In this document: positions 31,601 to 50,762 of the stretch, in pieces
How positions within the stretch are numbered: position 1 is the first letter of the stretch
Layout: every line of letters begins with the position of its first letter
Virus record (IMG/VR): IMGVR_UViG_3300045988_126669
Location: 33,217-97,216 of that record
DNA from: a virus
DNA: 64,000 bases
Reading direction: 5' to 3' (one strand)
Translations under genes and position numbers: made by a program
The notes under the pieces: model-generated
Database searches by the model: none
What the model was told of the DNA's origin: nothing
The model's input: only the letters and a program-made list of their open reading frames with translations

Positions 31601-31739
31601 GTTTCATTTAAAATTTTTTCTTTTTATATTTAAAAATTTTTTTAATAAAACAAATAACTTTTGCCCAATCACACTCTACGACTTGACATTTCTTTATTTT
31701 TATTTTATTATTATTATAAGAAAAAGAAAAGGAGTATTT

Positions 31740-32132
31740 ATGAAAACTATTTTTATTATATTATTGAGTTGTGCATTAGTAGCATCACTCCTTTTTTTAT
31801 GGTTATATAGAAAAGCTTTTTGGGTATTATATCAAAAAATGGCAAATTAGCAAAAAGAATTGAATAAATGGCCAATCGCGCAATATGAGTGTATGCTATT
31901 GTTAAATATATTTTATAATTATGATTTTGAGGGAAGAGCAGTAGATTTTTCGCGATATGAAACGCAAGGATTAATTGTTTATAATTGTTTTCATGATGCA
32001 AAAAATAGTCCAAAAGGAATTACAAATGATGGAATTGTTTCATCATTTTATAAACAAGCATTTGTATATGAATTAGATGATGGAACATTTGAATGGGAGG
32101 ATATTGAAGATGGGGCGGAACCAGCCTTTTGA
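31740..32132 (+). CDS. membrane-anchored hypothetical protein (130 aa if TAG at 31848 is read through; 36-aa TM peptide if not)
   Basis: TTGACA(31683)-17-TATTAT promoter and an AAAAGGAG RBS. The ATG at 31740 is in frame with ORF 31860..32132 across one TAG. Confidence 0.4.
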
Positions 32133-32505
32133 AGTAAGAGGGATAGACGCGGTAATATTTAGATTAGAACAAGAATATTTTAACGCAACAAGAGATAAAG
32201 ACCCTTTTGTAAGAGATTGGAAATTATTTAAAACAATACGTATTGAGCAAAAGGATAATGGGTCAAGAACAATTACTTATAAACCTTTATCAGACGCGGA
32301 AAAGGCTCAATTAAGCACCAAAGAAGAGCAACAAGAATATCAGTTGAATAAATACAAATATGTATTAGAGCATCTAATGGAAAAATATGATACAGATACT
32401 ATTAATAGATATATTGATAGTTGTAAATATAAAGATAAATTAATCGAATATATGGAGGAAAAATTAAATGCGAAAACCACTCAGCCCCTTGAAGGCAGTT
32501 GCTAA
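32110..32505 (+). CDS. hypothetical protein (131 aa)
   Basis: GGGAGGA RBS 11 nt upstream of the ATG at 32110. TAA stop. Confidence 0.45.
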   Translation: MGRNQPFEVRGIDAVIFRLEQEYFNATRDKDPFVRDWKLFKTIRIEQKDNGSRTITYKPLSDAEKAQLSTKEEQQEYQLNKYKYVLEHLMEKYDTDTINRYIDSCKYKDKLIEYMEEKLNAKTTQPLEGSC

Positions 32506-32630
32506 AAAGTATCAGCAGAAAGCCACCCATTCTGCTACTTCTGGATTATACACTCTTATGTGGGGTGAAAAACCTAAAAGAGGTAAAAAAAAAGAAGTCA
32601 TGATTTAAGATTTTAAATTATTCTTTATAA

Positions 32631-32689
32631 TTTGAAATTGAAAATTGATTTGTTGTTTTAAATCGTACTTTGAAATTGAAAATTGATTT
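32631..32689 (+). repeat. two 21-bp direct repeats TTTGAAATTGAAAATTGATTT (iteron-like) in the strand-switch region
   Basis: Exact copies at 32631-32651 and 32669-32689. Confidence 0.6.
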
Positions 32690-32859
32690 AGACTGTGTTT
32701 TGTCCACGCAAAAGAAAAAACACAAATCAAAAAAAATTTTTTCCCGAAATACACCCCCCCATCCATAAGAGTCTAACTCGTTTATTCTCTGAGAGTATAC
32801 CAGCCTTACTCTCGCTCTTTTGCGGAACGCACGATGCCATCCCGCACAAACACCCCGGT

Positions 32860-33035
32860 AAACGTTGCTCGGCTCGCTGGCGGTAGTGGCGAGCCGAGTT
32901 TTATAAAAATCAGCAGTTTGCACAAATTTCTCGCCAAAACTTCGTCAAAGCGCACAATCGTCAAAATACCCGAAACTACGCCATCACATTTGTGTAAAAT
33001 GACTATTGACAATCCAGTAGCCATGTGCTATACTT
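32860..33035 (+). promoter_or_regulatory. module copy 0: GC hairpin (ctcggctcgc..gcgagccgag + TTTTAT), TTTGCACAAATTT box, then a TTGACA/TATACT promoter
   Basis: Shares hairpin + U-run, the ...TTTGCACAAATTTC... box and ...CAATCC/-10 with the copies at 36.4, 38.6, 40.6, 42.9, 45.2, 47.7 and 49.9 kb. Confidence 0.5.
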
Positions 33036-33066
33036 GTATCATCAAAAAGAAAGAGGTAAATCAACT

Positions 33067-33438
33067 ATGAAAACTATTATCAATTCTTTTATCAAGGTTG
33101 TCTTCATCATTCTTCCTCTTGTTGTTATTTTAGCTATTTCCGCGCTCAAAACTCCCGAGGCTATGGCTTGTGAGGAAGCGCCCCAGTCCTACGACCTCTC
33201 GGTCATTGAGAATTGGTGTGGTGCAGGCACGGAACGCGGAAGTATTCGTTTCGTCGGTGCAGAGGTCTACGCACGCGAGGGTGATACCCTGACGCTCATT
33301 GACGAGCAGGGCAATCTGTGGGACGTGGAAGCACTCAACATTGATGACAACGACTTCTTGCTCTTGTGGATTAACGACAATGACACTGATACTGTGGAAG
33401 ATGATACAATTATTAAGGTATGGAGAGAGGCTTATTAA
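33067..33438 (+). CDS. secreted/membrane-anchored small protein (123 aa, N-terminal signal/TM)
   Basis: Promoter TTGACA 33006 / TATACT 33029. AAAGAAAGAGG RBS. TAA stop. Confidence 0.55.
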   Translation: MKTIINSFIKVVFIILPLVVILAISALKTPEAMACEEAPQSYDLSVIENWCGAGTERGSIRFVGAEVYAREGDTLTLIDEQGNLWDVEALNIDDNDFLLLWINDNDTDTVEDDTIIKVWREAY

Positions 33439-33567
33439 GTCTCTCTCTTTCTTGCGGATCGGCGAAGATTGTTAAAAAATTAACAAGCAGAAAAGAGTAA
33501 AAAAGGTCTTGACAAATGTGCGGTAATGTGCTACAATGTAGATACAATAAGAAAGGGGAATACTCAA

Positions 33568-33858
33568 ATGACTAATCAGGATTTTTACAAGGCTCTCAAA
33601 GCAGAAAAGGAACGGTTAATGAACGAAAGCAAGCAGGCGTTCCGCGACTGTCAGGTTAAGCGTGGTGAGATGTCGAGGGCATGGCACGAGGTAGACGCGC
33701 TCGAACAGGCAAACAAGTTTGGCACACAGGAACTCAGCGACGCGTATGATGACTACGAGGAAGCCAGCCACGCAAGTATGTTAGCAGACAACTACCTCGA
33801 TGACATTGATGAAGCCATTGATAAGATAAATGAGCTGATAAGTCTTTACGCAGAATAA
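33568..33858 (+). CDS. hypothetical small protein (96 aa)
   Basis: TTGACA 33509-17-TACAAT 33532. GAAAGGGGAA RBS. Confidence 0.55.
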   Translation: MTNQDFYKALKAEKERLMNESKQAFRDCQVKRGEMSRAWHEVDALEQANKFGTQELSDAYDDYEEASHASMLADNYLDDIDEAIDKINELISLYAE

Positions 33859-33989
33859 GGGAGCAGTAATGCTCCCTTCCTAACGGCGTAGATTGTTAAA
33901 AAATTAACAAAGATTTTTTTCAAAAAGGTCTTGACAAATCAGTTAGAATGTGGTATTCTATAATCACAAAAAGGAAAGGGGAATGAAAA

Positions 33990-34199
33990 ATGATTTACGG
34001 CATTGTTTATTACACTAAGGGCGGTCAGGGCTATCTCTTCCAGCAGGCATTCGAGGAACAGCGCGCTATGGAGATTGCAGGTAAGATGAACGACTTACTT
34101 GCGACAGGTGCTACAATGTATAATGACAAGTCCTATGGCAAGCTCGACTTGCGGAATGTCGAGTATTTCACAGTTGAACCCAGTAGCGAAATGTATTAA
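33990..34199 (+). CDS. hypothetical small protein (69 aa)
   Basis: Own TTGACAA-N17-TATAAT promoter and an AAAGGAAAGGGG RBS. Confidence 0.55.
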   Translation: MIYGIVYYTKGGQGYLFQQAFEEQRAMEIAGKMNDLLATGATMYNDKSYGKLDLRNVEYFTVEPSSEMY

Positions 34200-34382
34200 G
34201 GGCGGGAGCGGGCTTCCCGCTCTTTCTCTTGCACCGTGGAGCGCGTGTAGGGCGTCCCAGCCCGAACTTTACCACAGTAAAGCGTTAAAGCAAAATTTTT
34301 TCCATTTTTTGCCAAAAACCACTTGACATTCCTATCCCGAAATGCTATAATAGTATCATCAAAGGAAAGGGGAATACAACAA

Positions 34383-34601
34383 ATGACTATCGAACAGATT
34401 ATGGAGACTTACAGCAAGGGCTATGACGTGATGATTGATGATGGATTCAACACTTGGACTCCCAGCGGGAACGATGAATGGGACGCATTAGATGAGTTTG
34501 GGTGGACTTGCACGAACAAGGAAGTCAATGAAGCGGGCATTAAGGGCATCGAAGTCTTACCGGAGAAAATCGTATTTGTCAAAGTTGGAAAAGAACTGTA
34601 A
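34383..34601 (+). CDS. hypothetical small protein (72 aa)
   Basis: Own promoter (ACTTGACA..TATAAT) and RBS. TAA. Confidence 0.55.
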   Translation: MTIEQIMETYSKGYDVMIDDGFNTWTPSGNDEWDALDEFGWTCTNKEVNEAGIKGIEVLPEKIVFVKVGKEL

Positions 34602-34681
34602 AAAAAATAAAAAAGGGACTTGACAAAAGCCCCTTTGTTTGGTATAATGAATACATCAAAAGAAAGAAAGAGGTAAATCAA

Positions 34682-34804
34682 ATGTCTACTCATGATGGTC
34701 TTGTTCTTCTCGCTATCTATGTTGGTGTTATCGGCGCGGGTGCGCTCATCGAATACATGGAGCACCGCGTAAAGAGAGCGATTCGCCATAGAAAGAGAAG
34801 TTGA
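34682..34804 (+). CDS. 40-aa single-pass membrane micro-protein
   Basis: Own promoter GACTTGACAAAAG..TATAAT and an AAGAGG RBS. TGA. Confidence 0.45.
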   Translation: MSTHDGLVLLAIYVGVIGAGALIEYMEHRVKRAIRHRKRS

Positions 34805-34912
34805 AAAACTTCTCTTTTTTTTTGAAAAAAACACTTGACATTCTTTGCGGTCTGTGGTATTATAATATCAGAAAGGGAAAGGAAAATCCCAAACACCAGA
34901 AAGGTTAATTCA

Positions 34913-35074
34913 ATGATTACTATCAAGACTCTTCTCGACGGCGTTCTTCCTGTCAAGCCCCTGGCCTATGTCCTCGGCGATGACTGGACGTATCTTTACT
35001 CCGACACCTATAAGGGTGTGGAGTTCGATGTCCACGCCTGCATGAATGGCGAGGTCGTCGCGGTGTTAAATTAA
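34913..35074 (+). CDS. hypothetical 53-aa protein
   Basis: Own promoter and RBS, then terminator 35073-35100. Confidence 0.5.
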   Translation: MITIKTLLDGVLPVKPLAYVLGDDWTYLYSDTYKGVEFDVHACMNGEVVAVLN

Positions 35075-35100
35075 GGGCTGAAAAGCCCTTAATTTTTTTT
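35073..35100 (+). terminator. intrinsic terminator aagggctgaaaagccctt + T9
   Basis: Perfect hairpin plus a U-run. Near-identical copies at 35338-35368 and 35691-35717. Confidence 0.65.
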
Positions 35101-35171
35101 ATAAAAACCCTTGACAAATCCAGAAGTAAGTGCTATACTATAATTACAGTAAAGAAAGGGGAAAACAAAAG

Positions 35172-35333
35172 ATGAAATACAGAGTTTACACCGAAGATAA
35201 TTACAGCACTCGCCTTGGCTACTATCTGCCGACTTACTTTAAGACTAAGAAAGAAGCGCAGGCGTATGCAAAGACCCTGACGAAGCCCGCGACCATTGAG
35301 CGGAAATTAGTCAATACGTGGGTCAAGTGCTAA
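35172..35333 (+). CDS. hypothetical 53-aa basic protein
   Basis: Own promoter CCCTTGACAAATCC..TATACT, an RBS and a terminator. Confidence 0.5.
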   Translation: MKYRVYTEDNYSTRLGYYLPTYFKTKKEAQAYAKTLTKPATIERKLVNTWVKC

Positions 35334-35437
35334 GAATAAGGGCTGAAAAAAGCCCTTATTTTTTTTTATAAAAACCCTTGACAAATCCAAAAGCAGATGG
35401 TATAATGTAAATACAATAAAGGAAGGGGATAAAAACC

Positions 35438-35692
35438 ATGACTACTTACAACATTCTTACTATTGGCACTTCTTCTGTTCCGAAGCTCGCGGGCAAATTC
35501 AACATCGCGGACACTGAAAACTTTCTCGACCGGTTAGAGGAAACGCTTTACATTCTCTTTGAATTAGAGCCGAAGTCCCGCGAATGGAGACGCGAATTTC
35601 TCAAACATCTTTCAGCGGACTTCACCTATCACTTTTGTGAAGATTCTCGCGTTGAAAAGTTAGGCAACAACATTATTGTTTATGAGAAATAA
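35438..35692 (+). CDS. hypothetical protein (84 aa)
   Basis: Own promoter, RBS and terminator. Confidence 0.55.
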   Translation: MTTYNILTIGTSSVPKLAGKFNIADTENFLDRLEETLYILFELEPKSREWRREFLKHLSADFTYHFCEDSRVEKLGNNIIVYEK

Positions 35693-35797
35693 GGGCGGAA
35701 ACGCCCTTATTTTTTTTCAAACTTTTTTCAAAAAAACTATTGACAAATCCCGAATCTATGGTATAATAAGAATATAAAAGGAAAGGGGATAAACCAA

Positions 35798-35989
35798 ATG
35801 TTATTTAATGTTTCTATCAACTACTACAACTACAAGGCAAGCGATGTATTCTATTATCGCCATGAAATTCCGGTGTTCGGGCGGGAAAACGCTTGTATCC
35901 TTGCAAAGAAGTTCATCGACGCGGACAACGTTGTTTCGGTCGATGTTATCGACGCACTGACCGGCGAAGTCATCGAGAGTTTGAACTAA
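35798..35989 (+). CDS. hypothetical protein (63 aa)
   Basis: Own promoter CTATTGACAAATCC..TATAAT and terminator 35993-36030. Confidence 0.55.
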   Translation: MLFNVSINYYNYKASDVFYYRHEIPVFGRENACILAKKFIDADNVVSVDVIDALTGEVIESLN

Positions 35990-36120
35990 AAAAAACTCGG
36001 CAGGATATACAAAATCCTGCCGAGTTTTTATACATTTTGCCTATTGACTTTTATTATAGCTCATGTTATACTATAATTGTTCCAAGGGGAACGACATTAA
36101 AAACGAAAGAGGTTGACAAA

Positions 36121-36360
36121 ATGACTTTGGGCATGGTTAAAAATGTGATTGGTCTGGTAAAAGGCGCACTGATGTTCTATGAGGGGAACGGCATTGAAGT
36201 GATAAATGAAAACACTTGCGGGCGCTATCTCAAAGACCGCAAAGGTCGCATGACTCTGAATGGTGAGGTTTTGGGCGTAAGCGAAGAATGGGTGCTGGGA
36301 TTGCCTGTCAGCGGTTTGAAAGCCAAAGATGATGTTCTTATCGTTTATGTTGACGGTTAA
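36121..36360 (+). CDS. hypothetical protein (79 aa)
   Basis: Promoter TTGACTTTTATTATAGCTCATGTTATACT. RBS GAAAGAGG. Terminator 36370-36405. Confidence 0.5.
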   Translation: MTLGMVKNVIGLVKGALMFYEGNGIEVINENTCGRYLKDRKGRMTLNGEVLGVSEEWVLGLPVSGLKAKDDVLIVYVDG

Positions 36361-36410
36361 AAAATAAAAATGAAAATCTCCCCAAAAATGGGGAGATTTT
36401 TTTGTGCATT

Positions 36411-36570
36411 TTACCTATTGACAATTTCAAAACTTTGTGGTATAATCGGCCGGCGCGCGAACGGACCTGGCGCGCCGAGTTTTTGTCAATAGGCAGATTC
36501 AACAAATTTTTGGGGCAAATTTTTGTGCAAAGTGTCAATAGACAGAATCCCGAATCGGTGCTATACTATA
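36411..36570 (+). promoter_or_regulatory. module copy 1: IR-flanked promoter (TTGACA 36418 / TATAAT 36441), GC hairpin 36447-36479 + U-run, TTTTTGTGCAAAG box, then promoter P2 (TAGACA 36539 / TATACT 36562)
   Basis: The 13-bp inverted repeat tgcctattgacaa / ttgtcaataggca brackets the first promoter and the hairpin. Confidence 0.6.
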
Positions 36571-36619
36571 ATCACAGTAAGGGAAGGAAAACCTACCAAA
36601 CCGGAAAGGGATTTACAAC

Positions 36620-36928
36620 ATGATTAACATTCGTTCTATTCTCAAACTCGCTGAAAATGACGGCCTGACTCTCAAATATGGCAAGAAAGTCAACTACAAG
36701 TCCGGCTGGCAGGTCGCTACCAACGGCGTTGAATGTAAGACCGCCCGCGAAGCTATTAACGCGGTTAAGGACTTCGGCGGAAACTGCGGTGTATGGCTTG
36801 CGAACGGCATCTATTATGTTGACAAGTCCAAGAGAGTGCAGACCAAAAAGCAGGCGCTTGAAATTGGCAAGGCGTGCAATCAAATCAGCGTATATGGCTG
36901 GGCGCGCGGGAATCTGGCCTACTGCTAA
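36620..36928 (+). CDS. hypothetical protein (102 aa)
   Basis: Driven by the module-1 promoter P2. TAA. Confidence 0.55.
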   Translation: MINIRSILKLAENDGLTLKYGKKVNYKSGWQVATNGVECKTAREAINAVKDFGGNCGVWLANGIYYVDKSKRVQTKKQALEIGKACNQISVYGWARGNLAYC

Positions 36929-37005
36929 AAAAAATTGCATATAGGGCTTGACAAAACAAGCCCTATATGCTACAATAAAAACATCAAAGGAAAGGGAGAA
37001 ACACC

Positions 37006-37278
37006 ATGGAAATTAAATATGCTTATGAAATGACGCGCAAAGCCGAAGAAGTCCGCAAAGAAATCCAAGCTAAAAATAATGCCCTCGCGCGTGCGTTTAT
37101 CGGAGACCACATCATGCCGGAAATTGAGCGTGTGGCAGGAACGGGAGAAACACTTTACGAGTGTTCTCTTGCTTCATTAAATGACAAGGGCGTCAGGCAG
37201 GCTTGCAAAGATATTATGCAGAATTATGGCTATAAAGCCAGCTACATTGACAACGTTCTTTCGATCTATTGGGGATAA
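37006..37278 (+). CDS. hypothetical protein (90 aa)
   Basis: Own promoter GGGCTTGACAAAAC..TACAAT. RBS AAAGGGAG. Confidence 0.55.
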   Translation: MEIKYAYEMTRKAEEVRKEIQAKNNALARAFIGDHIMPEIERVAGTGETLYECSLASLNDKGVRQACKDIMQNYGYKASYIDNVLSIYWG

Positions 37279-37379
37279 ATAAAGAGGGAAAATTTTTCCC
37301 TCTTTTTTCCAAAAAGCCCTTGACAAATTCAGAAACAGATGCTATAATAACAATACAATACAGGAAAGGGAATGTTATT

Positions 37380-37742
37380 ATGATGAACTTCGAAACTTAT
37401 AGTCTTTTGAGAAAGTGCCTTGATAATGGTACTTTCACCGGAATGGACGTGTTTCAGGCGGAACGGGCTTGCCAGAAATTCGAGGAAGCCCAGGAAGCGC
37501 GGAAACTGAAACAGGAAATCCGCAACACCATGATGAAAAACATGATGCTCGATGTTCTCTCAAAGGCGGAAAAGCCCCTGTGCCCTACGGAAATCCAGTT
37601 TATTCTTTACCGTGAGACCGGCAAAGAATATCCTTGCGCCACCGTTGCATGGTATTGCGGTCATCTTTGCTGGATTGACAGAAAGTTGACCTACACCAAA
37701 AAGGGAAGCCGGAGCTACTACTCCATTAGAAAAGAAAATTGA
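37380..37742 (+). CDS. hypothetical protein (120 aa)
   Basis: Own promoter CCCTTGACAAATTC..TATAAT. RBS GGAAAGGG. Confidence 0.5.
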   Translation: MMNFETYSLLRKCLDNGTFTGMDVFQAERACQKFEEAQEARKLKQEIRNTMMKNMMLDVLSKAEKPLCPTEIQFILYRETGKEYPCATVAWYCGHLCWIDRKLTYTKKGSRSYYSIRKEN

Positions 37743-37819
37743 AAAAAATAAGAAAAAGGGCTTGACAAAAAGCCCTTTTTCTGCTATACTTAATGTATCA
37801 AAGGAAAGGGGAATAAAAC

Positions 37820-37891
37820 AATGGAATGTCCTTATTGCGATGGAAAGTGCGGAACACACGCTCAATGCGTTAAATGCGGAAAGGGGAAATA
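37820..37891 (+). CDS. 23-aa zinc-ribbon micro-protein (CxxC..CxxC)
   Basis: Own promoter GGGCTTGACAAAAAG..TATACT. RBS AGGAAAGGGG. Confidence 0.4.
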
Positions 37892-37894
37892 AAA

Positions 37895-38251
37895 ATGGGA
37901 ACAGAATTCTTAATTGTTGGCGGAATTTTTAGTGCAGTCCTTGCGCTGTTTGTTTGCCTTGTCTGTTGGTGCAACATGGACAAGTCTCACCCAATAGTCA
38001 GACTGTTAGTTGGTCTTCTCATTTCGTGCGCTCTTGGCTACGGTATGACGGGCGCAATAGTCGCGGAACACAATGCCGATAAAAAGGCATGGAATGACGG
38101 CTATTGCTCCATTTGCGGAAATGAAATGGAATTTGTAAATGCTTCTCACGGTCGGCATGGAACAGTTTTTTACTATTGGTATTGCGATGAGTGCGGACAT
38201 ACGTTAGAGCTAACCTCTAACTTTGCAAAGGGGGAAACAAATAATGAATGA
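37895..38251 (+). CDS. membrane protein with a C-terminal zinc ribbon (118 aa)
   Basis: RBS AAAGGGGA. N-terminal TM helices. Confidence 0.5.
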   Translation: MGTEFLIVGGIFSAVLALFVCLVCWCNMDKSHPIVRLLVGLLISCALGYGMTGAIVAEHNADKKAWNDGYCSICGNEMEFVNASHGRHGTVFYYWYCDECGHTLELTSNFAKGETNNE

Positions 38252-38450
38252 AAAACCTATCCCGCAGGCTTTGAGAGAACAGGCAGACGCCCTTGAAAAG
38301 TTGGCTCAAAGAATTGCAAAAGAAAGTCAGAAATTTCCAGACGCGGAAGACTACAAAGACGGCGGAGAACTTGCGAACGCCTTGTTTGCGATTCAGTCCA
38401 AACTCCGCTATGAATACTTCTGGATTGCGGAAGCCATGTGGGACGTATAA
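38244..38450 (+). CDS. hypothetical protein (68 aa)
   Basis: RBS AAGGGGGAAACAAATAATG and terminator 38455-38490. Confidence 0.5.
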   Translation: MNEKPIPQALREQADALEKLAQRIAKESQKFPDAEDYKDGGELANALFAIQSKLRYEYFWIAEAMWDV

Positions 38451-38535
38451 TTTTCAGGCGAGATTTAATTATCTCGCCTGAAATTTTTTTTTCAAAAAAC
38501 TATTGACAAACTCGCCCCGTTGTGGTATTATAATC

Positions 38536-38604
38536 ATGTCAAGAGGAAATGGTAAGCCTCTTGAAGTAGTAAACAAATTTTTCATACTATGGTTTGCGCG
38601 GTAG
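38536..38604 (+). CDS. leaderless micro-ORF MSRGNGKPLEVVNKFFILWFAR (could instead be an sRNA)
   Basis: Promoter TTGACA 38503; the ATG lies 4-5 nt after the -10 box. Shares the ATGTCA(A/G)GAGG start with the units at 45383, 47924, 48052 and 48158. Confidence 0.3.
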   Translation: MSRGNGKPLEVVNKFFILWFAR

Positions 38605-40037: not shown

Positions 40038-40042
40038 ACGAA

Positions 40043-43597: not shown

Positions 43598-43891
43598 ATG
43601 AGTAAACCGAAAACTTATGAGTATGAGGGAAGAACCTTTGAGGTCAAGGCATACAGCGGAGATGAGTATGGGGCTTTCTTATTCATCTATGTCTATGAAG
43701 TTATCCGCCCTACCCGCAAATTCTTTGGTCGAACTCGGTTCTTTTGCGAGGACTTTGTTCTTCTTGACCAATATCTTTCTATTGATGACGCAGTAAAAGA
43801 TGTCATCGCACGGGGTCTTTGGCAGGAAGAATATAAAAAGTTTGCCGAAGATAAATGGAAAGAATGGACAAATAAAGTGAGAAATTGCTAA
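43598..43891 (+). CDS. hypothetical protein (97 aa)
   Basis: Own promoter ACTTGACAAGC..TATAAT. Confidence 0.55.
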   Translation: MSKPKTYEYEGRTFEVKAYSGDEYGAFLFIYVYEVIRPTRKFFGRTRFFCEDFVLLDQYLSIDDAVKDVIARGLWQEEYKKFAEDKWKEWTNKVRNC

Positions 43892-43959
43892 AATTTCTCT
43901 TGACAACCGCGCAGACGTATGGTATAATACAGATACAGTAAAGGAAAGGGGTAATACCT

Positions 43960-44460
43960 ATGAAAATCACTTACATCAAGTCCCACGTTGTGGCTACTCG
44001 ACGTTCCATCAACTTTGACATGGACGGCACTATCGCTGACCTCTACGGCGTCAAGGATTGGCTTGCACTTCTCCGTTCGGAAAATCCTAAGCCCTATCGA
44101 ACTGCTGTTCCCATGTGCAATATGGCTGAACTGAATGAGGTTTGCGAACTTCTCCGCGCCGAGGGCTGGGAAATCAACATCATCACTTGGCTTTCCAAAG
44201 ATTCGAGCGAGGAATACAAAAACCTCGTGCGTGAAGCAAAGCGCGCGTGGCTTGAAGAACAGGGCTTCCACTATGACCACTTCCACGGCGTCCAGTATGG
44301 CGCGACTAAGGCCGACAGCGTGCGCGACCGCTATGACGTGTCCATCTTGGTTGACGATAATGAAAAGGTTCGGAATGGTTGGCACTTGGGCGAAACCATT
44401 GACCCGACCGCAGTAAACATTATCGAAAAACTTTCGGAACTTTTGGAGAAAAGGGCTTGA
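43960..44460 (+). CDS. HAD-superfamily 5'(3')-deoxyribonucleotidase-like phosphatase (166 aa)
   Basis: Motif I FDMDGTIAD, and a later ILVDDN motif. Own promoter CTCTTGACAACC..TATAAT. Confidence 0.55.
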   Translation: MKITYIKSHVVATRRSINFDMDGTIADLYGVKDWLALLRSENPKPYRTAVPMCNMAELNEVCELLRAEGWEINIITWLSKDSSEEYKNLVREAKRAWLEEQGFHYDHFHGVQYGATKADSVRDRYDVSILVDDNEKVRNGWHLGETIDPTAVNIIEKLSELLEKRA

Positions 44461-44515
44461 CAAAGCCCTACTCCAATGGTATAATAAATACATCAAATGA
44501 AAAGGAGAAAATAAA

Positions 44516-44722
44516 ATGGTTATTCTTTTAATTCTGCTGTCTCTCGCAGTTTCGTTCCTGCTTACCTCTGGTCTGGTTTGGCTTCTCTGCTGGCTTCTTC
44601 CCGCCCTCGGTATCACCGCAATCGGCACTTTCGTCATCGTGTTCTCGTGGAAGCTGGCACTCGCAATTTGGATTATTCTCGTGCTTTTGCAGTCCATCTT
44701 CTCGGTCGGTTCAAAGAGGTGA
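44516..44722 (+). CDS. 68-aa membrane protein
   Basis: Own promoter. RBS AAAGGAGAAAA. Confidence 0.5.
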   Translation: MVILLILLSLAVSFLLTSGLVWLLCWLLPALGITAIGTFVIVFSWKLALAIWIILVLLQSIFSVGSKR

Positions 44723-44727
44723 TAAAA

Positions 44728-44871
44728 ATGATGCCTTATTTTTGGGTTGATATTGGAATCATCGGAAAAGTAGTTGAAAAGATTGATGACGACCTTTTCA
44801 TCTATGAAACCGTTATCACCAAAGAACGCGCGACCGTGACCGCAAAATGGGTCAAGGAACATCTGCTTTAA
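44728..44871 (+). CDS. 47-aa hypothetical protein
   Basis: RBS AGAGGTGATAAAAATG. Confidence 0.4.
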   Translation: MMPYFWVDIGIIGKVVEKIDDDLFIYETVITKERATVTAKWVKEHLL

Positions 44872-44887
44872 GAGAGGAGAAATAAAA

Positions 44888-45145
44888 ATGAAAGTAAATT
44901 TTGGCACTAAGGGTCAGCTCCAAATTATCAACATTCTCAGCGGTGGCACGTTCACCACTCTGCGCTCCAACGGTAGCGGTATGGGAATGTATCTCAAAAT
45001 TGACAGCAACAACAACACGCCGTTTGTCCGGTCGAGAGGTTCGCAGTATTGCTACGCGGTGAATCTTGAAACGGGTCAGGTTCGCGAGTTTTCGCGCGAC
45101 AAGATGGTGACGCCGGTCAAGACCGAGGTCAATGTGATTGGCTAA
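44888..45145 (+). CDS. hypothetical protein (85 aa)
   Basis: RBS AGAGGAGAAATAAAAATG. Terminator 45150-45181. Confidence 0.55.
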   Translation: MKVNFGTKGQLQIINILSGGTFTTLRSNGSGMGMYLKIDSNNNTPFVRSRGSQYCYAVNLETGQVREFSRDKMVTPVKTEVNVIG

Positions 45146-45190
45146 AAGAAAATCTCCCCAAAAATGGGGAGATTTTTTTTGTTTACTTTG

Positions 45191-45377
45191 ACTATTGACA
45201 AAATCATCTGAATGTGATATAATGGGCCGGCCGTTTCCGCGCGCTACGGCCGGAATTTACCATTATACACCCCGCCAGCATTTTTGTCAAGAGAAATTTT
45301 GCACAAATTTCAATTTTATTTTTTCCCGTTATTTAGCTATTTTACCAATAGACAAATCAGTATCAATCTGCTATACT
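45191..45377 (+). promoter_or_regulatory. module copy 5: promoter (TTGACA 45195 / TATAAT 45218), GC hairpin 45224-45252 + AATTTACCATTATAC, TTTTGCACAAATTTC box, then P2 (TAGACA 45349 / TATACT 45372)
   Basis: Conserved blocks. Confidence 0.55.
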
Positions 45378-45382
45378 ACATA

Positions 45383-45496
45383 ATGTCAGGAGGAAAGAGT
45401 AAGATCTTCGGAAAGGCAGTTCCCTTGACCATTATACCAAAATCCGACGGAATGTTCCAAGCGTGGCGTGCCGAACAAACTTTCAAAAAAGTTTGA
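45383..45496 (+). CDS. leaderless micro-ORF MSGGKSKIFGKAVPLTIIPKSDGMFQAWRAEQTFKKV (37 aa)
   Basis: The ATG is 5 nt after the P2 -10 box and there is no SD. ATGTCAGGAGG family. Confidence 0.35.
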   Translation: MSGGKSKIFGKAVPLTIIPKSDGMFQAWRAEQTFKKV

Positions 45497-45564
45497 AAAA
45501 CCCCTTGACAAACCGTTCTACGTAGGGTATAATGAATACATCAAATGAGAGAGGTAAAAACAAG

Positions 45565-45594
45565 ATGACTTCTAATGCTCGCCCACCGCCTTAA
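45565..45594 (+). CDS. leader micro-ORF MTSNARPPP*
   Basis: Promoter CCCTTGACAAACC..TATAAT. RBS GAGAGG. Poly-Pro then stop. Confidence 0.35.
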   Translation: MTSNARPPP

Positions 45595-45655
45595 AAACTA
45601 ATGGTTTATTGAATTGGATTGGATTAAGATTATAGATAAAGGTAGGTATAAACAA

Positions 45656-45688
45656 GATGTATAGTAATAAACCTCGCGACCGCCCCTA
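45656..45688 (+). CDS. leader micro-ORF MYSNKPRDRP*
   Basis: RBS AAAGGTAGG. Ends Arg-Pro-stop (TnaC-like). Confidence 0.35.
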
Positions 45689-45787
45689 AAAAAAATTGCA
45701 AAAACTATTGACAGCCTGCTCCGCCTATGATATAATAACTACATTAAAGACAAGGGCAGTCTTAAAAACCAGAAAGGAATTGATACT

Positions 45788-46168
45788 ATGGCTACTTCTA
45801 CTTCTACCACTAAGAAGCTCACCAAGCGCGACCGTTTTGAGGCTCTGCTCAAAATGAGCGAGGTTCAGGCAAATCCTGATATGGTGGCGTTCATCGAGCA
45901 TGAGATTGAACTGCTCGCCAAGAAGAACGCGGGCGACAAGAAGCCCACGGCCAAGCAGATGGAGAATGACGCTGTGAAGCAGGTCATTCTGGACGAGATG
46001 ACCGCGAACCCCGACAAGCTGTATACCGTAACCGACCTCATCAAGACCGTTCCCGAACTCGCGGAGTATACCAATCAGCGCGTTTCCGCTCTTCTGCGTC
46101 AGATGATTGACGCCGGTTCGGTTGTCAAGACGGTTGACAAGCGCAAGTCCTACTTCTCCCTCGCGTAA
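45788..46168 (+). CDS. hypothetical protein (126 aa), paralog of 48467..48844
   Basis: About 65% identity to the 48467 gene. Both carry the conserved GAAAGGAATTGATACTATG leader. Confidence 0.6.
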   Translation: MATSTSTTKKLTKRDRFEALLKMSEVQANPDMVAFIEHEIELLAKKNAGDKKPTAKQMENDAVKQVILDEMTANPDKLYTVTDLIKTVPELAEYTNQRVSALLRQMIDAGSVVKTVDKRKSYFSLA

Positions 46169-46310
46169 AGGAAAAAGGGCAGGGGATAAAAAAATCCCCT
46201 GCCCTGCAAAAAAAACTGTTGACAAACCAATAGCAAAGTGATATACTATGTATAGAGATTGAGAGAACGATGGTAAACCTCAATCTACTTTTCCAATAGG
46301 AGACGATAAA

Positions 46311-47087
46311 ATGGGTATTGATAGGCGCAAAAACTACGGCATTATGCTGGACACGGAAACCGCAAACACCATTCAGGACGGCGATAAGCTGGATATGTCA
46401 AATGTACTTCCCTACGACTTCGGCTGGGCGGTCATTGATTCCAAGGGAAATGTTTATGAAACTCATTCTTTTGTGAATCGCGACATTTTCTGCTACGAGC
46501 GCGACCTCATGCGGTCTGCCTACTACGCCGACAAGATTCCTCGCTACATTGAGGATATTCAAAACGGCACTCGCATTATGGCTGACCTTTACGAAATTCG
46601 TCTTGCGTTCTGCGAATGTGTCGAGCGCTACAACTGCTCTTTTGTGTGCGCTCATAATATGCGGTTCGACCTTAACGCCTGCAACAACGCGCAAAGATGG
46701 GACACGAAAAGCAAGTATCGCTATTTCTTCCCCTACGACCTCGAAATTTGGGACACGTTGAAAATGGCGCGTCAGGTTATCGGTAAAATGCCTACTTACC
46801 GCGACTATTGCGAAAAGAACGGCTACAAGACCAAGAACGGACAGCTCCGTTTCACCGCAGAAATTCTCTATCGCTTTATCAGCGGTGAGGACAACTTTGA
46901 TGAATCCCACACGGGATTAGAAGATGTTCTCATTGAAGTTGAGATTCTGCGCTACTGCGTCCGACAGCACAAGGAAATGGACAAGTCCCTTTTCAAAACT
47001 CCCACGGTGAAGCGTCCCAAGCCTACCGAGTTTCAGCGTGCGCTCATGCGAAACATTAAGGAAAATCCTATGATAAACATGAGCTAA
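46311..47087 (+). CDS. DEDDh-family 3'-5' exonuclease (DnaQ/RNase T-like), 258 aa
   Basis: Exo I MLDTETAN, Exo II HNMRFDLN, Exo III SHTGLEDVLIEVEIL. The 5'UTR carries the conserved hairpin gattgagagaacgatggtaaacctcaatc. Confidence 0.7.
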   Translation: MGIDRRKNYGIMLDTETANTIQDGDKLDMSNVLPYDFGWAVIDSKGNVYETHSFVNRDIFCYERDLMRSAYYADKIPRYIEDIQNGTRIMADLYEIRLAFCECVERYNCSFVCAHNMRFDLNACNNAQRWDTKSKYRYFFPYDLEIWDTLKMARQVIGKMPTYRDYCEKNGYKTKNGQLRFTAEILYRFISGEDNFDESHTGLEDVLIEVEILRYCVRQHKEMDKSLFKTPTVKRPKPTEFQRALMRNIKENPMINMS

Positions 47088-47166
47088 AAAAAAATAGGGG
47101 AATAGGGCTTGACAAGTCCTATTCCCTATGGTATAATCAATGTATCAAATGAAAGAGGTGTTTCAC

Positions 47167-47445
47167 ATGAACGCTAAACAAGTCCTTTTTGTAGTCCCTG
47201 ATGACAATGACCCTCACATGGGCATTTTAATCGACCATGACTATATTATCTGCGCCGAGTGCGGTGGCGTCTTTGAAGCTGATGAAGTTTTCATTATTCA
47301 GACCTACGACTCTTGGGTAAATTTTGAAGATGAAATTGCGGACGAGCTTGACCTGCTGACTGCAAAAGACATTGGCAAGGAGCTGGATAGCAAGGAAAAG
47401 TTCGGCTGGGACGCGTGGAAAGAAGCCATTAAGGGGGAGTTTTGA
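47167..47445 (+). CDS. hypothetical protein (92 aa, CxxC)
   Basis: Own promoter GGGCTTGACAAGTCC..TATAAT. RBS AAGAGG. Confidence 0.5.
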   Translation: MNAKQVLFVVPDDNDPHMGILIDHDYIICAECGGVFEADEVFIIQTYDSWVNFEDEIADELDLLTAKDIGKELDSKEKFGWDAWKEAIKGEF

Positions 47446-47447
47446 AA

Positions 47448-47687
47448 ATGGATTTAGATTTTAATTACATGACTGACGAGGAACTGGACGAACTCATTCT
47501 CCAAATACAAGAAGCCAGAAAAGCCCGCGCAGAAAGCCGAAAGATTGACCTTTGGAACAATGTTCGGCGGTCGGTTCAGAATTACATCATGGAATGTGGA
47601 ATGATTGAACTCTTTACCGAGGACTACAATTCCACGCTGGACGCTGATTCTTTCAGGATTCCCGGCGAGATTAACCTGCTGGACTAA
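47448..47687 (+). CDS. hypothetical protein (79 aa)
   Basis: RBS AAGGGGGAG. Terminator 47695-47725. Confidence 0.5.
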   Translation: MDLDFNYMTDEELDELILQIQEARKARAESRKIDLWNNVRRSVQNYIMECGMIELFTEDYNSTLDADSFRIPGEINLLD

Positions 47688-47730
47688 AATAAAAAACTAC
47701 CCAAAATTGGGTAGTTTTTTTTGTCTATTT

Positions 47731-47919
47731 TGTCTATTGACAAACGCGGATTTTTGTGATAAAATGGGCGGACCGCCAGCGTACGCAGCGGTCCGAATTT
47801 TCCATTATATCACGCCCCGCCAATTTTGTCAAGAGAAAAATTGCACAAAAGTGAAGAAAATTTTTTCCCGTAATTTGGTTATTTTGTCAATTGCAATCTA
47901 CGGGCAATCTGCTATAATA
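47731..47919 (+). promoter_or_regulatory. module copy 6: promoter (TTGACA 47736 / TAAAAT 47759), GC hairpin 47765-47794 + AATTTTCCATTATATCAC, AAATTGCACAAAAG box, then P2 (TTGCAA 47891 / TATAAT 47914)
   Basis: Conserved blocks. Confidence 0.55.
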
Positions 47920-47923
47920 GATA

Positions 47924-48022
47924 ATGTCAGGAGGGAACAGTGAATTGCCGAACGGCTTCGCTGATGGGTGTGATAACTCGGTAACTGACCCGTTTTCAAA
48001 GAAATTTGAAATTCCCTCTTGA
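47924..48022 (+). CDS. leaderless micro-ORF MSGGNSELPNGFADGCDNSVTDPFSKKFEIPS
   Basis: The ATG is 5 nt after the -10 box. Confidence 0.3.
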   Translation: MSGGNSELPNGFADGCDNSVTDPFSKKFEIPS

Positions 48023-48051
48023 CAAGTAGTGCGAAAAGTGCTACAATAGAT

Positions 48052-48126
48052 AATGTCAAGAGGACAGAGCCGTTGTACGCTCAATTGTGAGATAAGAACT
48101 CTGAAAAAAATTTATAAAACCTCTTG
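48052..48126 (+). CDS. leaderless micro-ORF MSRGQSRCTLNCEIRTLKKIYKTS
   Basis: TTGACA 48018-17-TACAAT 48041, with the ATG 5 nt after the -10 box. Confidence 0.3.
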
Positions 48127-48157
48127 ACAAACCCCAGCGAGTGTGCTACAATAGAAA

Positions 48158-48277
48158 ATGTCGAGAGGGAGTAACCCAAGAAATCCGAGGGCGCGCGACT
48201 TTGAGAAAGTATAGGAAGTAAACATAATACACCACGTTGTAAAGCCAAACGTTGAACGCGAAAGTGAGTTTGATTGA
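48158..48277 (+). CDS. leaderless micro-ORF MSRGSNPRNPRARDFEKV(TAG)EVNIIHHVVKPNVERESEFD
   Basis: TTGACA 48124-17-TACAAT 48147, with the ATG 5 nt after the -10 box. Has an in-frame TAG. Confidence 0.25.
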
Positions 48278-48466
48278 ACCAACTATCCTTGACGCGGTTT
48301 TCCGCTGACAAATAGATTGAATCAACAAACAATAAATTATCCGTCAGGTCGGGGTAGTAATTCGTGTGAAAAGTTTGCGAAACCTCTTGACAAACACTCC
48401 AAAGTGTGGTATACTCAATAATATCAAAAGGGTAGCGACCTACCGCCAAAGAAAGGAATTGATACT

Positions 48467-48844
48467 ATGTCTACTTCTACTGTTAAGAAGCTCACCAAGC
48501 GCGACCGTTTCGAGGCTCTGCTCAAACTGTCCGAGGTTCAGGCTGACCCTGCTATGGTTGAGTTTATCAACCACGAAATCGACCTGCTGTCCCGCAAGAA
48601 CGCCGGTGACAAGAAGCCGACCGCGAATCAGATTGCCAACGACGGCTACAAGGACATTATCTTTGCCGAGCTGTCCGCGAATCCTGACAAGCTGTATACC
48701 GTGACCGAACTCATCAAGAACGTGGACGGTCTGGGCGACCTCACCAATCAGCGCGTTTCCGCTCTTCTGCGTCAGATGATTGAAGCGAACGGCGTCGAGA
48801 AGATTGTGGACAAGCGCAAGTCCTACTTCCGTCTCGCCCACTGA
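48467..48844 (+). CDS. hypothetical protein (125 aa), paralog of 45788..46168
   Basis: Promoter CTCTTGACAAACAC..TATACT. Terminator 48850-48890. Confidence 0.6.
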   Translation: MSTSTVKKLTKRDRFEALLKLSEVQADPAMVEFINHEIDLLSRKNAGDKKPTANQIANDGYKDIIFAELSANPDKLYTVTELIKNVDGLGDLTNQRVSALLRQMIEANGVEKIVDKRKSYFRLAH

Positions 48845-48944
48845 TTCAGGGGGAGCGCCTGAAAAAAATCAGGCGCTCCCAAAAATTTCTCTTGACATTT
48901 GCTGACGGCGGTGTTATAATCATACTTGAAAGGGGGCAAAAGAA

Positions 48945-49352
48945 ATGCCTAAAATGAGTAAAAAAGACTTTCAGGCAAAGATTGATAATCTGATGAAAAA
49001 GTTAGATTGTACTGCCGAGGAAGCAAAAGAAATTCTCATGGACGATGATGACATTGACCATGGAATCGCCAAGGACTTTGACCTGTCCGCGGAAAAGCTC
49101 AAAGAAGCTAACAAGTATTCTAAAACCGGAACACGCAAAGCGCCGACCGCTTATAAGTTTGAGAAGCGACAGCGCAAGGAAAACCCCACAAAACGCTCGA
49201 TTATTGCTGAACTTGCGACTTTTTTGCGAGAAAACAGCGAAAATGCGTGCGAAAATGTGGAAATCACGAACATTGAGCGCATGATTGCGTTCCATGTGGG
49301 CGAAAATGACTATGAATTGACCCTGATTCAGAAGCGAAAGCCCAAAAATTGA
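48945..49352 (+). CDS. hypothetical protein (135 aa)
   Basis: Promoter TCTCTTGACATTTG..TATAAT. RBS AAAGGGGG. Terminator 49355-49398. Confidence 0.55.
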   Translation: MPKMSKKDFQAKIDNLMKKLDCTAEEAKEILMDDDDIDHGIAKDFDLSAEKLKEANKYSKTGTRKAPTAYKFEKRQRKENPTKRSIIAELATFLRENSENACENVEITNIERMIAFHVGENDYELTLIQKRKPKN

Positions 49353-49475
49353 CAAAAAAGGGTGAAAAACCGCTGAAAAATGCGGTTTTTCACCCAAAAA
49401 CAAGTCAAAAAATGCAAAAAATAATGGTTGAGAGAACGATGGTAAACCTCAATCAATAGAGAGGATTTTGTGCCG

Positions 49476-49886
49476 ATGGAAGAAATTACTATTAAGCTAC
49501 GCCGATTTAAGGACGGCAGACCGCCCGTTTCAATGGAGTTTATGCCTAATTGTGGCGAGAATCTGAAAGACGTTCAAGCGGTCTACTTTTTCAAGTTTTA
49601 CAACAACAACAAACTTGAATTTAACAAGGTAGGCACTTCCGCAAAAGACGTTGTAGGGCGTTTGCGTGATGAAATTGGCGAGTATGCAAAAAAGTATGCT
49701 ATCACGCGCGTTGAAATTCATCGAATCCGTTCTTGCGGGGATTATCCCGCCGAGGGCGCGGAAAGCGCGTTGCGTGCGGAACTGATTAGACGCTATCCCA
49801 AAGCGTTCCGCAAGAATGACCGCTTTTTTAATGTGGACATTAACCCCACGGTTTTCGATGAAATTGTAAACGCATTTCTTGCATAA
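49476..49886 (+). CDS. hypothetical protein (136 aa)
   Basis: The 5'UTR has the conserved hairpin gttgagagaacgatggtaaacctcaatc (identical core to the one at 46258). Terminator 49895-49930. Confidence 0.5.
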   Translation: MEEITIKLRRFKDGRPPVSMEFMPNCGENLKDVQAVYFFKFYNNNKLEFNKVGTSAKDVVGRLRDEIGEYAKKYAITRVEIHRIRSCGDYPAEGAESALRAELIRRYPKAFRKNDRFFNVDINPTVFDEIVNAFLA

Positions 49887-49937
49887 ATATTCAATCAGCA
49901 GGTTGACTAAAACCTGCTGATTTTTTTTGTGCATTTT

Positions 49938-50010
49938 GCCTATTGACACCGATCGGAAAATGTGGTATAATGGCCGGGCCGTCGCGGGACGTGCCGGCCC
50001 GATTTCCCGA
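49938..50010 (+). promoter_or_regulatory. module copy 7 (first half only): promoter (TTGACA 49943 / TATAAT 49966) + GC hairpin 49972-50001, flanked by CCGATCGG repeats
   Basis: Same promoter-hairpin arrangement. The downstream part diverges (CATATG inverted repeats). Confidence 0.45.
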
Positions 50011-50280
50011 TCGGTATACCCATATGCAAAATTTCTCATACTTCTAGCACCTCTCCATATGGCCCAAAAAAATCCCGAAAATTGACTTTTTATAAAAAAT
50101 ATGTTATAATGATAAAAAAAGACTTTTTTAAGCCCGCGTAGGATCATATGCCTTTATGATTAATTAAAAACTGCTTCGCCCTTACATTGTTTCACGCGTA
50201 TGTTTTCATTTAAAAAAATCTTGACATTTTTAAAAAAAAAGTATATAATATATATAGAAAATAAGAAAAGAGGTATTCAT

Positions 50281-50658
50281 ATGGATATGAATGATATTAT
50301 TGCTCGTCTGAAAAATGGTGAGGACGCTCAGGCTATTGCGGACGAAATGGCTAAGTCTCTGAACGATGCGGTTAAGCAGGTGGAGAAGGAAACCAAGCAG
50401 GCCGATCGGAAGACCGCGCTCGCGCAAGAAATCGCCGATCGGATTAACGAGTATGCCGCTCTTAATGGCTACAAGGATTCCGCGTTGACCGCGTCCGATG
50501 TGGAGAACATCTTTGCTGAGGTTTACGGTCTTATGACCGGGGTTAACGATCTTCTTGACGTGCTTTTTCCCAAGAGCACCCCGGTAAAGGTTAAGAAGGT
50601 CAAGAAAACCGATGATGATGTAATTGCCGAATTTTTGAACACTTTCATTAATAAGTGA
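50281..50658 (+). CDS. hypothetical protein (125 aa)
   Basis: Promoter TTGACA 50221-17-TATAAT 50244. RBS AAGAGG. Terminator 50735-50765. Confidence 0.55.
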   Translation: MDMNDIIARLKNGEDAQAIADEMAKSLNDAVKQVEKETKQADRKTALAQEIADRINEYAALNGYKDSALTASDVENIFAEVYGLMTGVNDLLDVLFPKSTPVKVKKVKKTDDDVIAEFLNTFINK

Positions 50659-50762
50659 ACAATGTGTAGGGTGAGATATTTTTCATCCTAAGAATCGACA
50701 ATTTCACCAAGAATTGCCTAATATGAAAAAAGAGAGACTAAAAAAAGTCTCTCTTTTTTTTT

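Follow-up and report, generated by a model that had tools for sequence, protein, structure and literature searches.

A predicted early gene array readable in two genetic codes, next to TAG-recoded late genes, in an SPbeta-like gut phage lineage

Organization of the locus

We analyzed a 64,000-nucleotide stretch of viral DNA (positions 33,217 to 97,216 of the IMG/VR record IMGVR_UViG_3300045988_126669), hereafter the window, in which a dense plus-strand array of small, GC-rich genes lies next to a minus-strand operon of virion genes that contain in-frame TAG codons. An earlier inspection of the letters alone (the sequence-only reading) had proposed that such a genome consists of two compartments: early genes translatable by a standard-code host, and late genes which would need an amber suppressor after a temporal switch. 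Our analysis makes it likely that the early genes are dual-coded (i.e., readable in either code), that TAG encodes Gln in the late genes, and that the suppressor is carried by the phage itself, outside the window. As part of the same likely picture, the window is about one third of the ~195 kb genome of a tailed SPbeta-like siphophage of gut Bacillota, a phage that writes its virion genes and cargo in code 15 (TAG = Gln). The principal features, numbered from the first nucleotide of the window, are as follows.

53..31547, minus strand: late (virion) operon in code 15, 20 genes; 190 in-frame TAG codons; stops 18 TAA and 2 TGA; GC 28-31%, with a G+C share at third codon positions (GC3) of 0.19
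6578-14884, minus strand: tape measure gene (2768 aa), full length with TAG as sense; 84 TAG
16884-17867, minus strand: tail tube gene, no TAG
21832-22938, minus strand: major capsid gene, no TAG
25484-27046, minus strand: portal gene of the late operon, full length with TAG as sense
27516-29255, minus strand: TerL gene of the late operon, full length with TAG as sense
33006..50658, plus strand: dual-coded early array, GC-rich at 0.42-0.45; 41 small genes of 40-258 aa, all with ATG and a AAAGGAAAGGGG-type Shine-Dalgarno (SD) sequence
53878..63893, plus strand: middle genes of intermediate GC (0.36-0.40), with TAA or TGA stops and free of TAG save for an insertion at 57055-57954

Composition and stop codon usage

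Composition across the window is not uniform. As had been noticed from the sequence, the early array is richer in GC than the late operon (0.42-0.45 across 33-50 kb versus 0.27-0.33 over most of 1-31 kb, in 2-kb windows), and GC3 is 0.53 in early genes versus 0.19 in late genes. This contrast, together with that in TAG, stands, but the number of compartments has to be revised, since three composition classes are seen: early genes (~0.43 GC), middle genes (0.36-0.40, TAG-free), and late and cargo genes (0.23-0.31, TAG-rich).

Genes were called with a combination of an SD motif and a three-periodic Markov model. Between 33067 and 50658, this caller yielded 41 robust plus-strand genes, all with ATG and an SD sequence (41/41), and 2 marginal ones. 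The previous figure of ~60 early genes is thus too high for the 31.7-50.7 kb region, which holds 41-43 genes; ~60 plus-strand genes are reached only by counting out to 64 kb. The accompanying statement that none of these genes ends on TAG was correct: the 41 array genes stop on TAA (26) or TGA (15), and none contains an in-frame TAG. Assuming 15-20% TAG stops as the null rate, 0/41 has a probability of 1e-3 to 1e-4, and the absence of TAG among 88 early Gln codons has P ~2e-18 at the 37% share found in late genes. Avoidance of TAG as a stop, likewise proposed before, extends to the whole window, where 86 genes end on TAA (61) or TGA (25) and never on TAG. As a control, the caller did find TAG stops in the standard-code distant relatives L106 (4/5) and L107 (3/8), and it gave none in 13 close strains and 0-1 in a sister genus (contigs L103-L105; at most one doubtful open reading frame (ORF) of 38 aa).

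The array ORFs are truly coding: of 4,943 substitutions between strains (13 strains, 214 distinct ungapped orthologues), 70% affect the third codon position, which is the largest substitution class in 35/36 array genes. All 214 orthologues end on TAA or TGA, with 0 TAG stops. No stop codon differs among the strains, hence TAA<->TGA switching has no power as a test of selection against TAG. Since the array is free of TAG both in frame and as a stop, its products are identical under the standard code of the host and after the switch, and the proposal that the early genes can be read in the standard code is borne out.

Depletion of TAG in all frames of the plus strand (observed/expected 0.28) was also considered as a special signal, but was rejected with codon-shuffle controls. 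Frame 1 has 28 observed TAG versus 27.9 expected; in frame 2, TAA is depleted along with TAG. Codon usage and a general avoidance of TA account for most of the effect.

TAG as a glutamine codon in late genes

When TAG is read as sense, stop-to-stop ORF coverage of the 1-31.5 kb region rises from 0.44 to 0.98, and the longest ORF reaches 2776 codons. No gain in ORF coverage was obtained by reading TGA as sense. TAG positions pair with Q or with TAG in relatives: in the bin below 70% identity, the counterparts were Q (1729), * (718) and E (425), with no Y, and the substitution spectrum (Q > E > K ...) mirrors that of genuine Gln codons. TAG is thus a Gln codon, as had been suspected. An assignment to Tyr, prompted by a 90-nt form of the suppressor with a long extra arm located beside tRNA-Tyr (see below), was ruled out, as TAG aligns with Q and never with Y.

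Outside the late operon, in-frame TAG is found only in AT-rich genes, namely 31740-32132, the island at 51580-53219 and the insertion at 57055-57954. The sequence-only reading had limited TAG as sense to late genes, nuclease genes and the island; this mostly held, and the AT-rich plus-strand gene 31740-32132 has to be added. The features concerned, and others adjoining the late operon, are listed below.

27147..27437, minus strand: small nuclease-like gene between portal and TerL; weak DUF2726 match; 3 TAG
31600>31572, minus strand: the only perfect sigma-70/sigma-A promoter of the late region (12/12, no extended -10), directly upstream of the first late-operon gene
31683-31711: promoter of the AT-rich plus-strand pair
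31740..32505, plus strand: two AT-rich genes (130 and 131 aa; GC3 0.17 and 0.26) that separate the late operon from the GC-rich array, called at the same sizes in sister contigs; the first (31740-32132) has one in-frame TAG
51580..53219, minus strand: variable AT-rich (0.23-0.31 GC) island of three genes; 12 in-frame TAG
51832-52689, minus strand: GIY-YIG-motif protein of the island; 8 TAG
52767-53219, minus strand: DUF6291/helix-turn-helix protein of the island
57055..57954, plus strand: AT-rich nuclease-like mobile insertion; GC3 0.12; 4 in-frame TAG

The composition of the island varies between strains. The insertion is present in the window and in sister contig L125, and is missing from L124, L126 and L127.

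Codon usage and the GC split

Early and late genes differ in their choice of codons. TTA accounts for 9% of Leu codons in early genes and 63% in late genes, and AAG for 56% versus 22% of Lys codons. Gln is mostly CAG in early genes (77%), whereas late genes use CAA (53%), TAG (37%) and CAG (10%). The GC split is also present in the other strains, in the sister genus (L103-L105, GC 0.40-0.46) and in the TAG-recoded gut phage phAss-1 (OQ749652.1; L001, L191, L192). In phAss-1, a TAG-rich block has 0.33-0.36 GC versus 0.47-0.54 in a TAG-poor block, and consensus promoters are concentrated at the GC-rich end (123-136 kb, minus strand); the sections of the phAss-1 paper (PMC10607447) accessible to us do not mention a GC split. 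Conservation in the sister genus and in phAss-1 argues that the split is maintained. One explanation is selection for host-adapted codons in genes that a naive host must translate at once, versus AT drift elsewhere. We regard this explanation as evenly poised between right and wrong, because MAG hits give inconsistent taxonomy for the host and the tRNA set of the phage does not favor late-enriched codons.

It is also possible, though rather unlikely, that expression level and not timing sets the partition. In this case, highly expressed genes would avoid TAG because suppression is inefficient, and would use host-preferred codons ending in G or C, with weakly expressed genes drifting to AT. The capsid gene, a 305-aa gene (22956-23873), the tube gene and the gene at 21152-21745 fit this idea, as they contain no TAG and have the highest GC among late genes (0.35-0.41; GC3 0.20-0.34), and GC3 is anticorrelated with TAG density over all genes (rho = -0.68, P = 5e-13). 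However, the correlation is gone within late genes (rho = -0.15, P = 0.52), the late gene 18617-19198 has no TAG at a GC3 of 0.13, and middle genes are TAG-free at intermediate GC. The idea complements the temporal model and is compatible with it.

Promoters and cassette exchange in the early array

Intergenic spacers of the array (~100 bp) form repeat families (D1-D20), which consist of a promoter, a short leader, the SD sequence AAAGGAAAGGGG and ATG, often preceded by an intrinsic terminator. In most array genes the promoter is a near-consensus sigma-70/sigma-A site (cTTGACAaa, 17 bp, TGnTATAAT). The array contains 101 promoter-like sites versus 38.7 +/- 6.0 in shuffles, and no such enrichment was seen in the late region (108 versus 97.9 +/- 10.8). 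On the plus strand of the array, 22 sites are perfect (12/12, TTGACA-17-TATAAT), nearly all with the extended -10 TG, which argues that the array is driven by host RNA polymerase (RNAP). The GC-rich array has the profile of an early, hyperplastic module of the host-takeover type, predicted to be transcribed by the host RNAP; host-takeover modules of this kind exist in SPO1/T5-type phages.

The array is more divergent between strains than the late operon (88-93% versus 94-97% nucleotide identity), and strains differ by cassette replacements whose breakpoints have a median distance to a promoter centre of 46 nt, versus 169 nt for random positions; 32/45 of the breakpoints are intergenic versus 31% expected. 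In addition, 37/40 array proteins scanned against Pfam had no match. All of this would suit an origin of the GC split in mosaicism, i.e., promoter-flanked cassettes derived from a GC-richer phage ancestry and TAG-free by origin. Standard-code donors, however, would bring TAG stops (7/13 in L106 and L107 together), yet none is present among the 41 genes here or in the 13 strains. Moreover, the split is conserved in the sister genus and in phAss-1, and SD, leader and promoter grammar are common to all array genes. Thus, such a legacy is an improbable source of the split.

The exceptions in the Pfam scan were a MazE/AbrB-type protein, a PNKP-phosphatase-like protein and a weak match to CTD10 (ABC-3C); the 258-aa array protein has a weak exonuclease-like match in PHROGs. 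A ~2.5-kb early segment is duplicated in tandem (45124-45349 versus 47666-47891; 45792-46091 versus 48465-48764). The paralogues it contains, 45788-46168 and 48467-48844, are 77% identical in nucleotide sequence and have the highest GC3 in the window (0.72-0.73). The regions 45380-45790 and 47900-48470 contain several consensus promoters and no called gene, and their transcripts are predicted to start with (A)AUGUCAGGAGG... Tiny SD-preceded ORFs are located at 45566 (MTSNARPPP*) and 45658 (MYSNKPRDRP*), both of which end in Pro-stop.

Promoter/GC-hairpin units

Seven units, spaced ~2.2 kb apart, are composed of a bidirectional terminator, a plus-strand consensus promoter and, 2-4 nt further on, a hairpin with an 8-bp all-G/C stem and a loop of 11-13 nt; copy 2 has no plus-strand promoter. 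In four of the window copies, a perfect minus-strand promoter faces back ~40 nt away.

36416..36500: copy 1, promoter/GC-hairpin unit in which GAGTTTTT comes after the hairpin
38655..38730: copy 2, GC-hairpin unit whose consensus promoter is on the minus strand (38728>38700), no plus-strand partner
40612..40690: copy 3, promoter/GC-hairpin unit in which GAGTTTTTT comes after the hairpin
42889..42990: convergent-promoter/GC-hairpin unit, copy 4; plus-strand promoter 42891-42919, minus-strand promoter 42984>42956
45193..45295: convergent-promoter/GC-hairpin unit, copy 5; plus-strand promoter 45195-45223, minus-strand promoter 45290>45262
47735..47835: convergent-promoter/GC-hairpin unit, copy 6; plus-strand promoter 47737-47765, minus-strand promoter 47832>47804
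49941..50030: promoter/GC-hairpin unit, copy 7

The stem is kept perfect over at least 7 bp in 51/56 distinct variants, with 12 different arm sequences (i.e., the changes are compensatory), versus 0.7% in shuffles. The hairpin units had no match in Rfam, and the Rfam scan of the window gave no match at all. Single promoter-hairpin-T-run units occur in phAss-1 and L103 too. From promoter geometry, the plus-strand start is predicted to lie inside the stem and the minus-strand start at the stem base; minus-strand RNAs of ~105-110 nt would then extend from the hairpin base to the upstream bidirectional terminator.

A more far-reaching possibility, to which we give little credence, is a genome-wide design across the clade, in which early genes are written in the dialect of the host and late and cargo genes in an AT-rich private dialect. 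Codon usage of whole genes would then gate late translation, and the seven hairpin units would be a new regulatory class that helps timing. TAG makes up 37% of late Gln codons versus 18-22% for the G-ending codons of Glu and Lys, and in such a design TAG may be the preferred G-ending Gln codon of late genes. The hairpin units could serve as small antisense RNAs with a 5'-terminal hairpin, or as transcription-interference switches.

Suppressor tRNA, tRNA array and putative ribozyme

No tRNA was detected in the window by either ARAGORN or Rfam, in agreement with the sequence-only reading, which had placed the suppressor outside the window or in the host. The right flank is known from a walk along sister contigs, and not from the contig of this strain. 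To the right of the window, sister contigs show no tRNA for about 20 kb; an array of ~20 tRNAs starts 14-21 kb past the right end of the window, depending on the strain. A tRNA with a CUA anticodon is present in 9/9 close contigs that cover the region, between tRNA-Val and tRNA-Tyr and ~26-31 kb out (window-equivalent position ~95 kb on the 196-kb contig), and it scores 56 bits against the Rfam tRNA model. Of the two locations proposed earlier, the former is therefore the one observed in sister strains.

The suppressor slot is polymorphic, in that three unrelated tRNA bodies (90, 73 and 72 nt) are found between identical flanks in different strains (sister contigs L173, 12505-12649; L175, 12652-12724; L174, 6666-6737). 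The three bodies share the anticodon loop CUCUAAA, a mismatched 1:72 pair and the discriminator G73; the 1:72 mismatch of form A is flagged in the Rfam alignment. Identity elements of tRNA(Gln) are such that a mismatched 1:72 pair and G73 fit glutamine acceptance, which suggests that the suppressor tRNAs are suited to charging with Gln. The flank downstream of all three bodies is a putative hepatitis delta virus (HDV)-like ribozyme of the theta type: the HDV-like model RF02682 aligns from end to end (model positions 1-74) starting at position 12595 of L173, where the tRNA match ends at 12593.

As an alternative, TAG might be decoded with no suppressor from the phage, through a suppressor tRNA of the host or through near-cognate readthrough once an early protein has inhibited release factor 1 (RF1). 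This would accord with the lack of tRNAs in the window, with the ~40 uncharacterised early proteins of the array and with the finding of a TAG-matching tRNA in only 13% of 285 TAG-recoded gut phage genomes (Gulyaeva et al., PMC9610469), but is very unlikely given that all 9 sister contigs covering the region carry a CUA tRNA, which the Rfam tRNA model recognizes. RF1 inhibition could act as an auxiliary.

Several other features were observed around the tRNA array. A tRNA-like gene opens the array in every strain (L173 2609-2679, L168 12758-12828, L133 16028-16098 and others); its 6-nt anticodon loop, [A/C]UUUAA, could be read as UUA (ochre-type), and the gene lies under the Rfam tRNA threshold. 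ARAGORN also called a TCA anticodon (opal-reading, 'SeC (tca)') in L173 (13867-13946) and L175 (14003-14082), with no Rfam tRNA match. TGA is a used stop in this phage, and the call is probably spurious or degenerate. As real tRNAs, both the 'SeC (tca)' and the 'tRNA-??? (tt)' calls of ARAGORN are doubtful, since they fall short of the Rfam tRNA threshold. Upstream of the tRNA array, ~13-23 kb beyond the right end of the window, lies AT-rich (17-25% GC), TAG-containing cargo (L131 13089-21407; L168 10001-12680). Its genes code for two radical-SAM (S-adenosylmethionine) proteins, a radical-SAM/glycosyltransferase fusion and a YcaO-like protein, and are missing from strain 126226 (L133); they suggest a phage-borne cluster of the RiPP type (ribosomally synthesized and post-translationally modified peptides). 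In more distant relatives, a tmRNA gene is located within arrays of 17-32 tRNAs (L151 19637-19986; L182 9512-9856).

Affiliation of the phage

In the collection, 1068 blocks are indexed for the capsid protein, and the longest contigs measure 191-197 kb. The structural module is SPbeta-like, with Yon/Yom Pfam families on syntenic genes in SPbeta order; YonG_N, YonD_N, YonB, YomW, YomV (including YomV_2nd), YomU_Tube and PhageMin_Tail were found on identical or near-identical genes of public contigs. The TerL sequences nearest to this one among GenBank phages come from a 12-kb fragment (60% identity), then from 140-kb Enterococcus siphoviruses (47%) and phAss-1 (44.7%). As TerL is only 44.7% identical to that of phAss-1 over 90% of its length, the phage is placed outside the proposed Phassvirus, and kinship to phAss-1 would be at the family level at most. 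A megablast search of the early array against GenBank phages gave no match.

Sister phage contigs have been deposited within metagenome-assembled genomes (MAGs) named Mollicutes, Clostridium, Lachnospiraceae, Erysipelotrichaceae and Muribaculaceae (e.g., L111, CAMELE010000001.1, 163,874 bp). These labels are probably due to mis-binning of AT-rich phage. Five related contigs (L090, L091, L092, L102 and L125) stop at the right edge of the GC-rich array (~49-51.6 kb), beside the variable AT-rich island. The idea that the genome ends physically, or has a terminal repeat, at ~50.8 kb was rejected, as the 191-196 kb contigs are permuted and have different ends; the stops near this position are more likely assembly breaks at the strain-variable island.

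A model for the code switch

These elements most probably act in a temporal order. On entry, the sigma-A RNAP of the host would transcribe the array, and the array proteins, encoded without TAG, would be identical on either side of the switch. The tRNA array, located downstream on the same strand, would supply tRNA(CUA), probably matured by the ribozyme. With accumulation of the suppressor, which would be the limiting component, the 190 late TAGs (37% of the Gln codons of the operon) would be read as Gln, and terminase, portal, tape measure and tail proteins would be completed.

Several observations weigh against this model or parts of it. The conclusion that the suppressor is phage-encoded draws on sister strains, with the degrees of identity given above for their late and early regions, and so applies to the phage of the window by extension. 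The score of the putative ribozyme against RF02682 (26.1 bits, E = 0.0058) is below the gathering threshold of 44. No genes for release factors or aminoacyl-tRNA synthetases, such as the RF2 and GlnRS genes that some phages of this kind carry, turned up in the window or in the next ~45 kb on its right, a search that did not cover ~85 kb to the left. The perfect sigma-A promoter at the head of the late operon implies that transcription timing may not cleanly separate the classes; it hints that host RNAP might transcribe proximal late genes early, and that TAG, and hence translation and not only transcription, might be the effective gate. The phage tRNA set does not include tRNAs for the commonest late codons TTA, AAA and CAA, and the idea that phage tRNAs serve AT-rich late codons was rejected (Mann-Whitney P = 0.83; 62% versus 65% of codons covered). 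Finally, and with regard to host-adapted codon usage, a search for the host via GTDB genomes returned only MAG contigs with inconsistent taxonomy.

Relation to known systems

The design of dual-coded early and recoded late genes is already published, and what we describe is its occurrence in a new, abundant lineage. Borges et al. (10.1101/2021.08.26.457843) present a model of recoded late genes with a phage suppressor, and Pfennig, Lomsadze & Borodovsky (Mgcod; 10.1101/2022.06.29.495998) introduced the 'dual-coded early block' and the 'soft switch'. With regard to composition, the term 'GC content' is absent from the portion of the Mgcod text that was searched, and the passages of Borges et al. 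at hand treat GC at the genome level only. The code likewise switches where the strand switches in recoded gut phages, crAss-like and others (Ivanova 2014; Yutin 2021; Borges; Pfennig); there too, late structural genes contain in-frame TAG, the early block is the same under codes 11 and 15, and the phage carries a Sup-CTA tRNA. However, the present lineage is an SPbeta-like siphophage of Bacillota of ~195 kb and does not belong to Crassvirales; its suppressor, instead of lying at the 5' end of the recoded block, is located on the early/middle strand within a large tRNA array; and the code blocks are accompanied by a 15-point GC split and a dense array of consensus sigma-A promoters.

The proposed Phassvirus phAss-1 (Babkin et al. 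2023, PMC10607447; NCBI 'Caudoviricetes code 15 clade') is a gut phage in which TAG = Gln; it has 36 tRNAs, of which three are Sup-CTA. It resembles the present phage in that TAG encodes Gln in TerL, portal, tape measure and tail genes, in its very long tape measure protein, its human gut origin, its many tRNAs including Sup-CTA, its GC split and its promoter-rich GC-rich end. The two differ in genome size (~195 kb here versus 136 kb), in the number of suppressors (one Sup-CTA slot here versus three genes) and in synteny.

Theta (minimal HDV-like) ribozymes associated with tRNAs have been described in recoded gut phages (Kienbeck et al. 2024, PMC10879173). In those phages, and in the putative unit here, the suppressor tRNA of a code-15 phage is followed right at its 3' terminus by an HDV-like fold; in contrast, the match here is below the threshold of the only related Rfam model, and a single flank follows three unrelated tRNA bodies.

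As for the array, promoter-early/stem-loop (PeSL) cassettes are known in T4-type phages (Arbiol 2010, PMC2839356; Comeau 2014, PMC4122927). In both cases, conserved composite terminator/promoter motifs flank the small early ORFan genes and are the points at which strain-specific indels or replacements join. The phage group and the motif sequences are unrelated, and the analogy is functional only: the present array uses Gram-positive-type sigma-A promoters with an extended -10, and some of its units add a convergent minus-strand promoter and an all-G/C hairpin.

Implications

The combination of dual-coded early genes, recoded late genes and a suppressor tRNA with a putative theta ribozyme is extended by these data from crAss-like phages to an abundant ~195 kb SPbeta-like phage. 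Because nearly every array gene has its own consensus sigma-A promoter, the sequence evidence for the early class is unusually clean. Gene callers need to handle mixed codes on contigs of such phages, and binning can take these phages for low-GC bacteria, as happened with one sister contig that was deposited as a 'Mollicutes' MAG. The 15-point GC split, which is common to this lineage and phAss-1, offers a testable handle on the AT-richness of the late genes of recoded phages.

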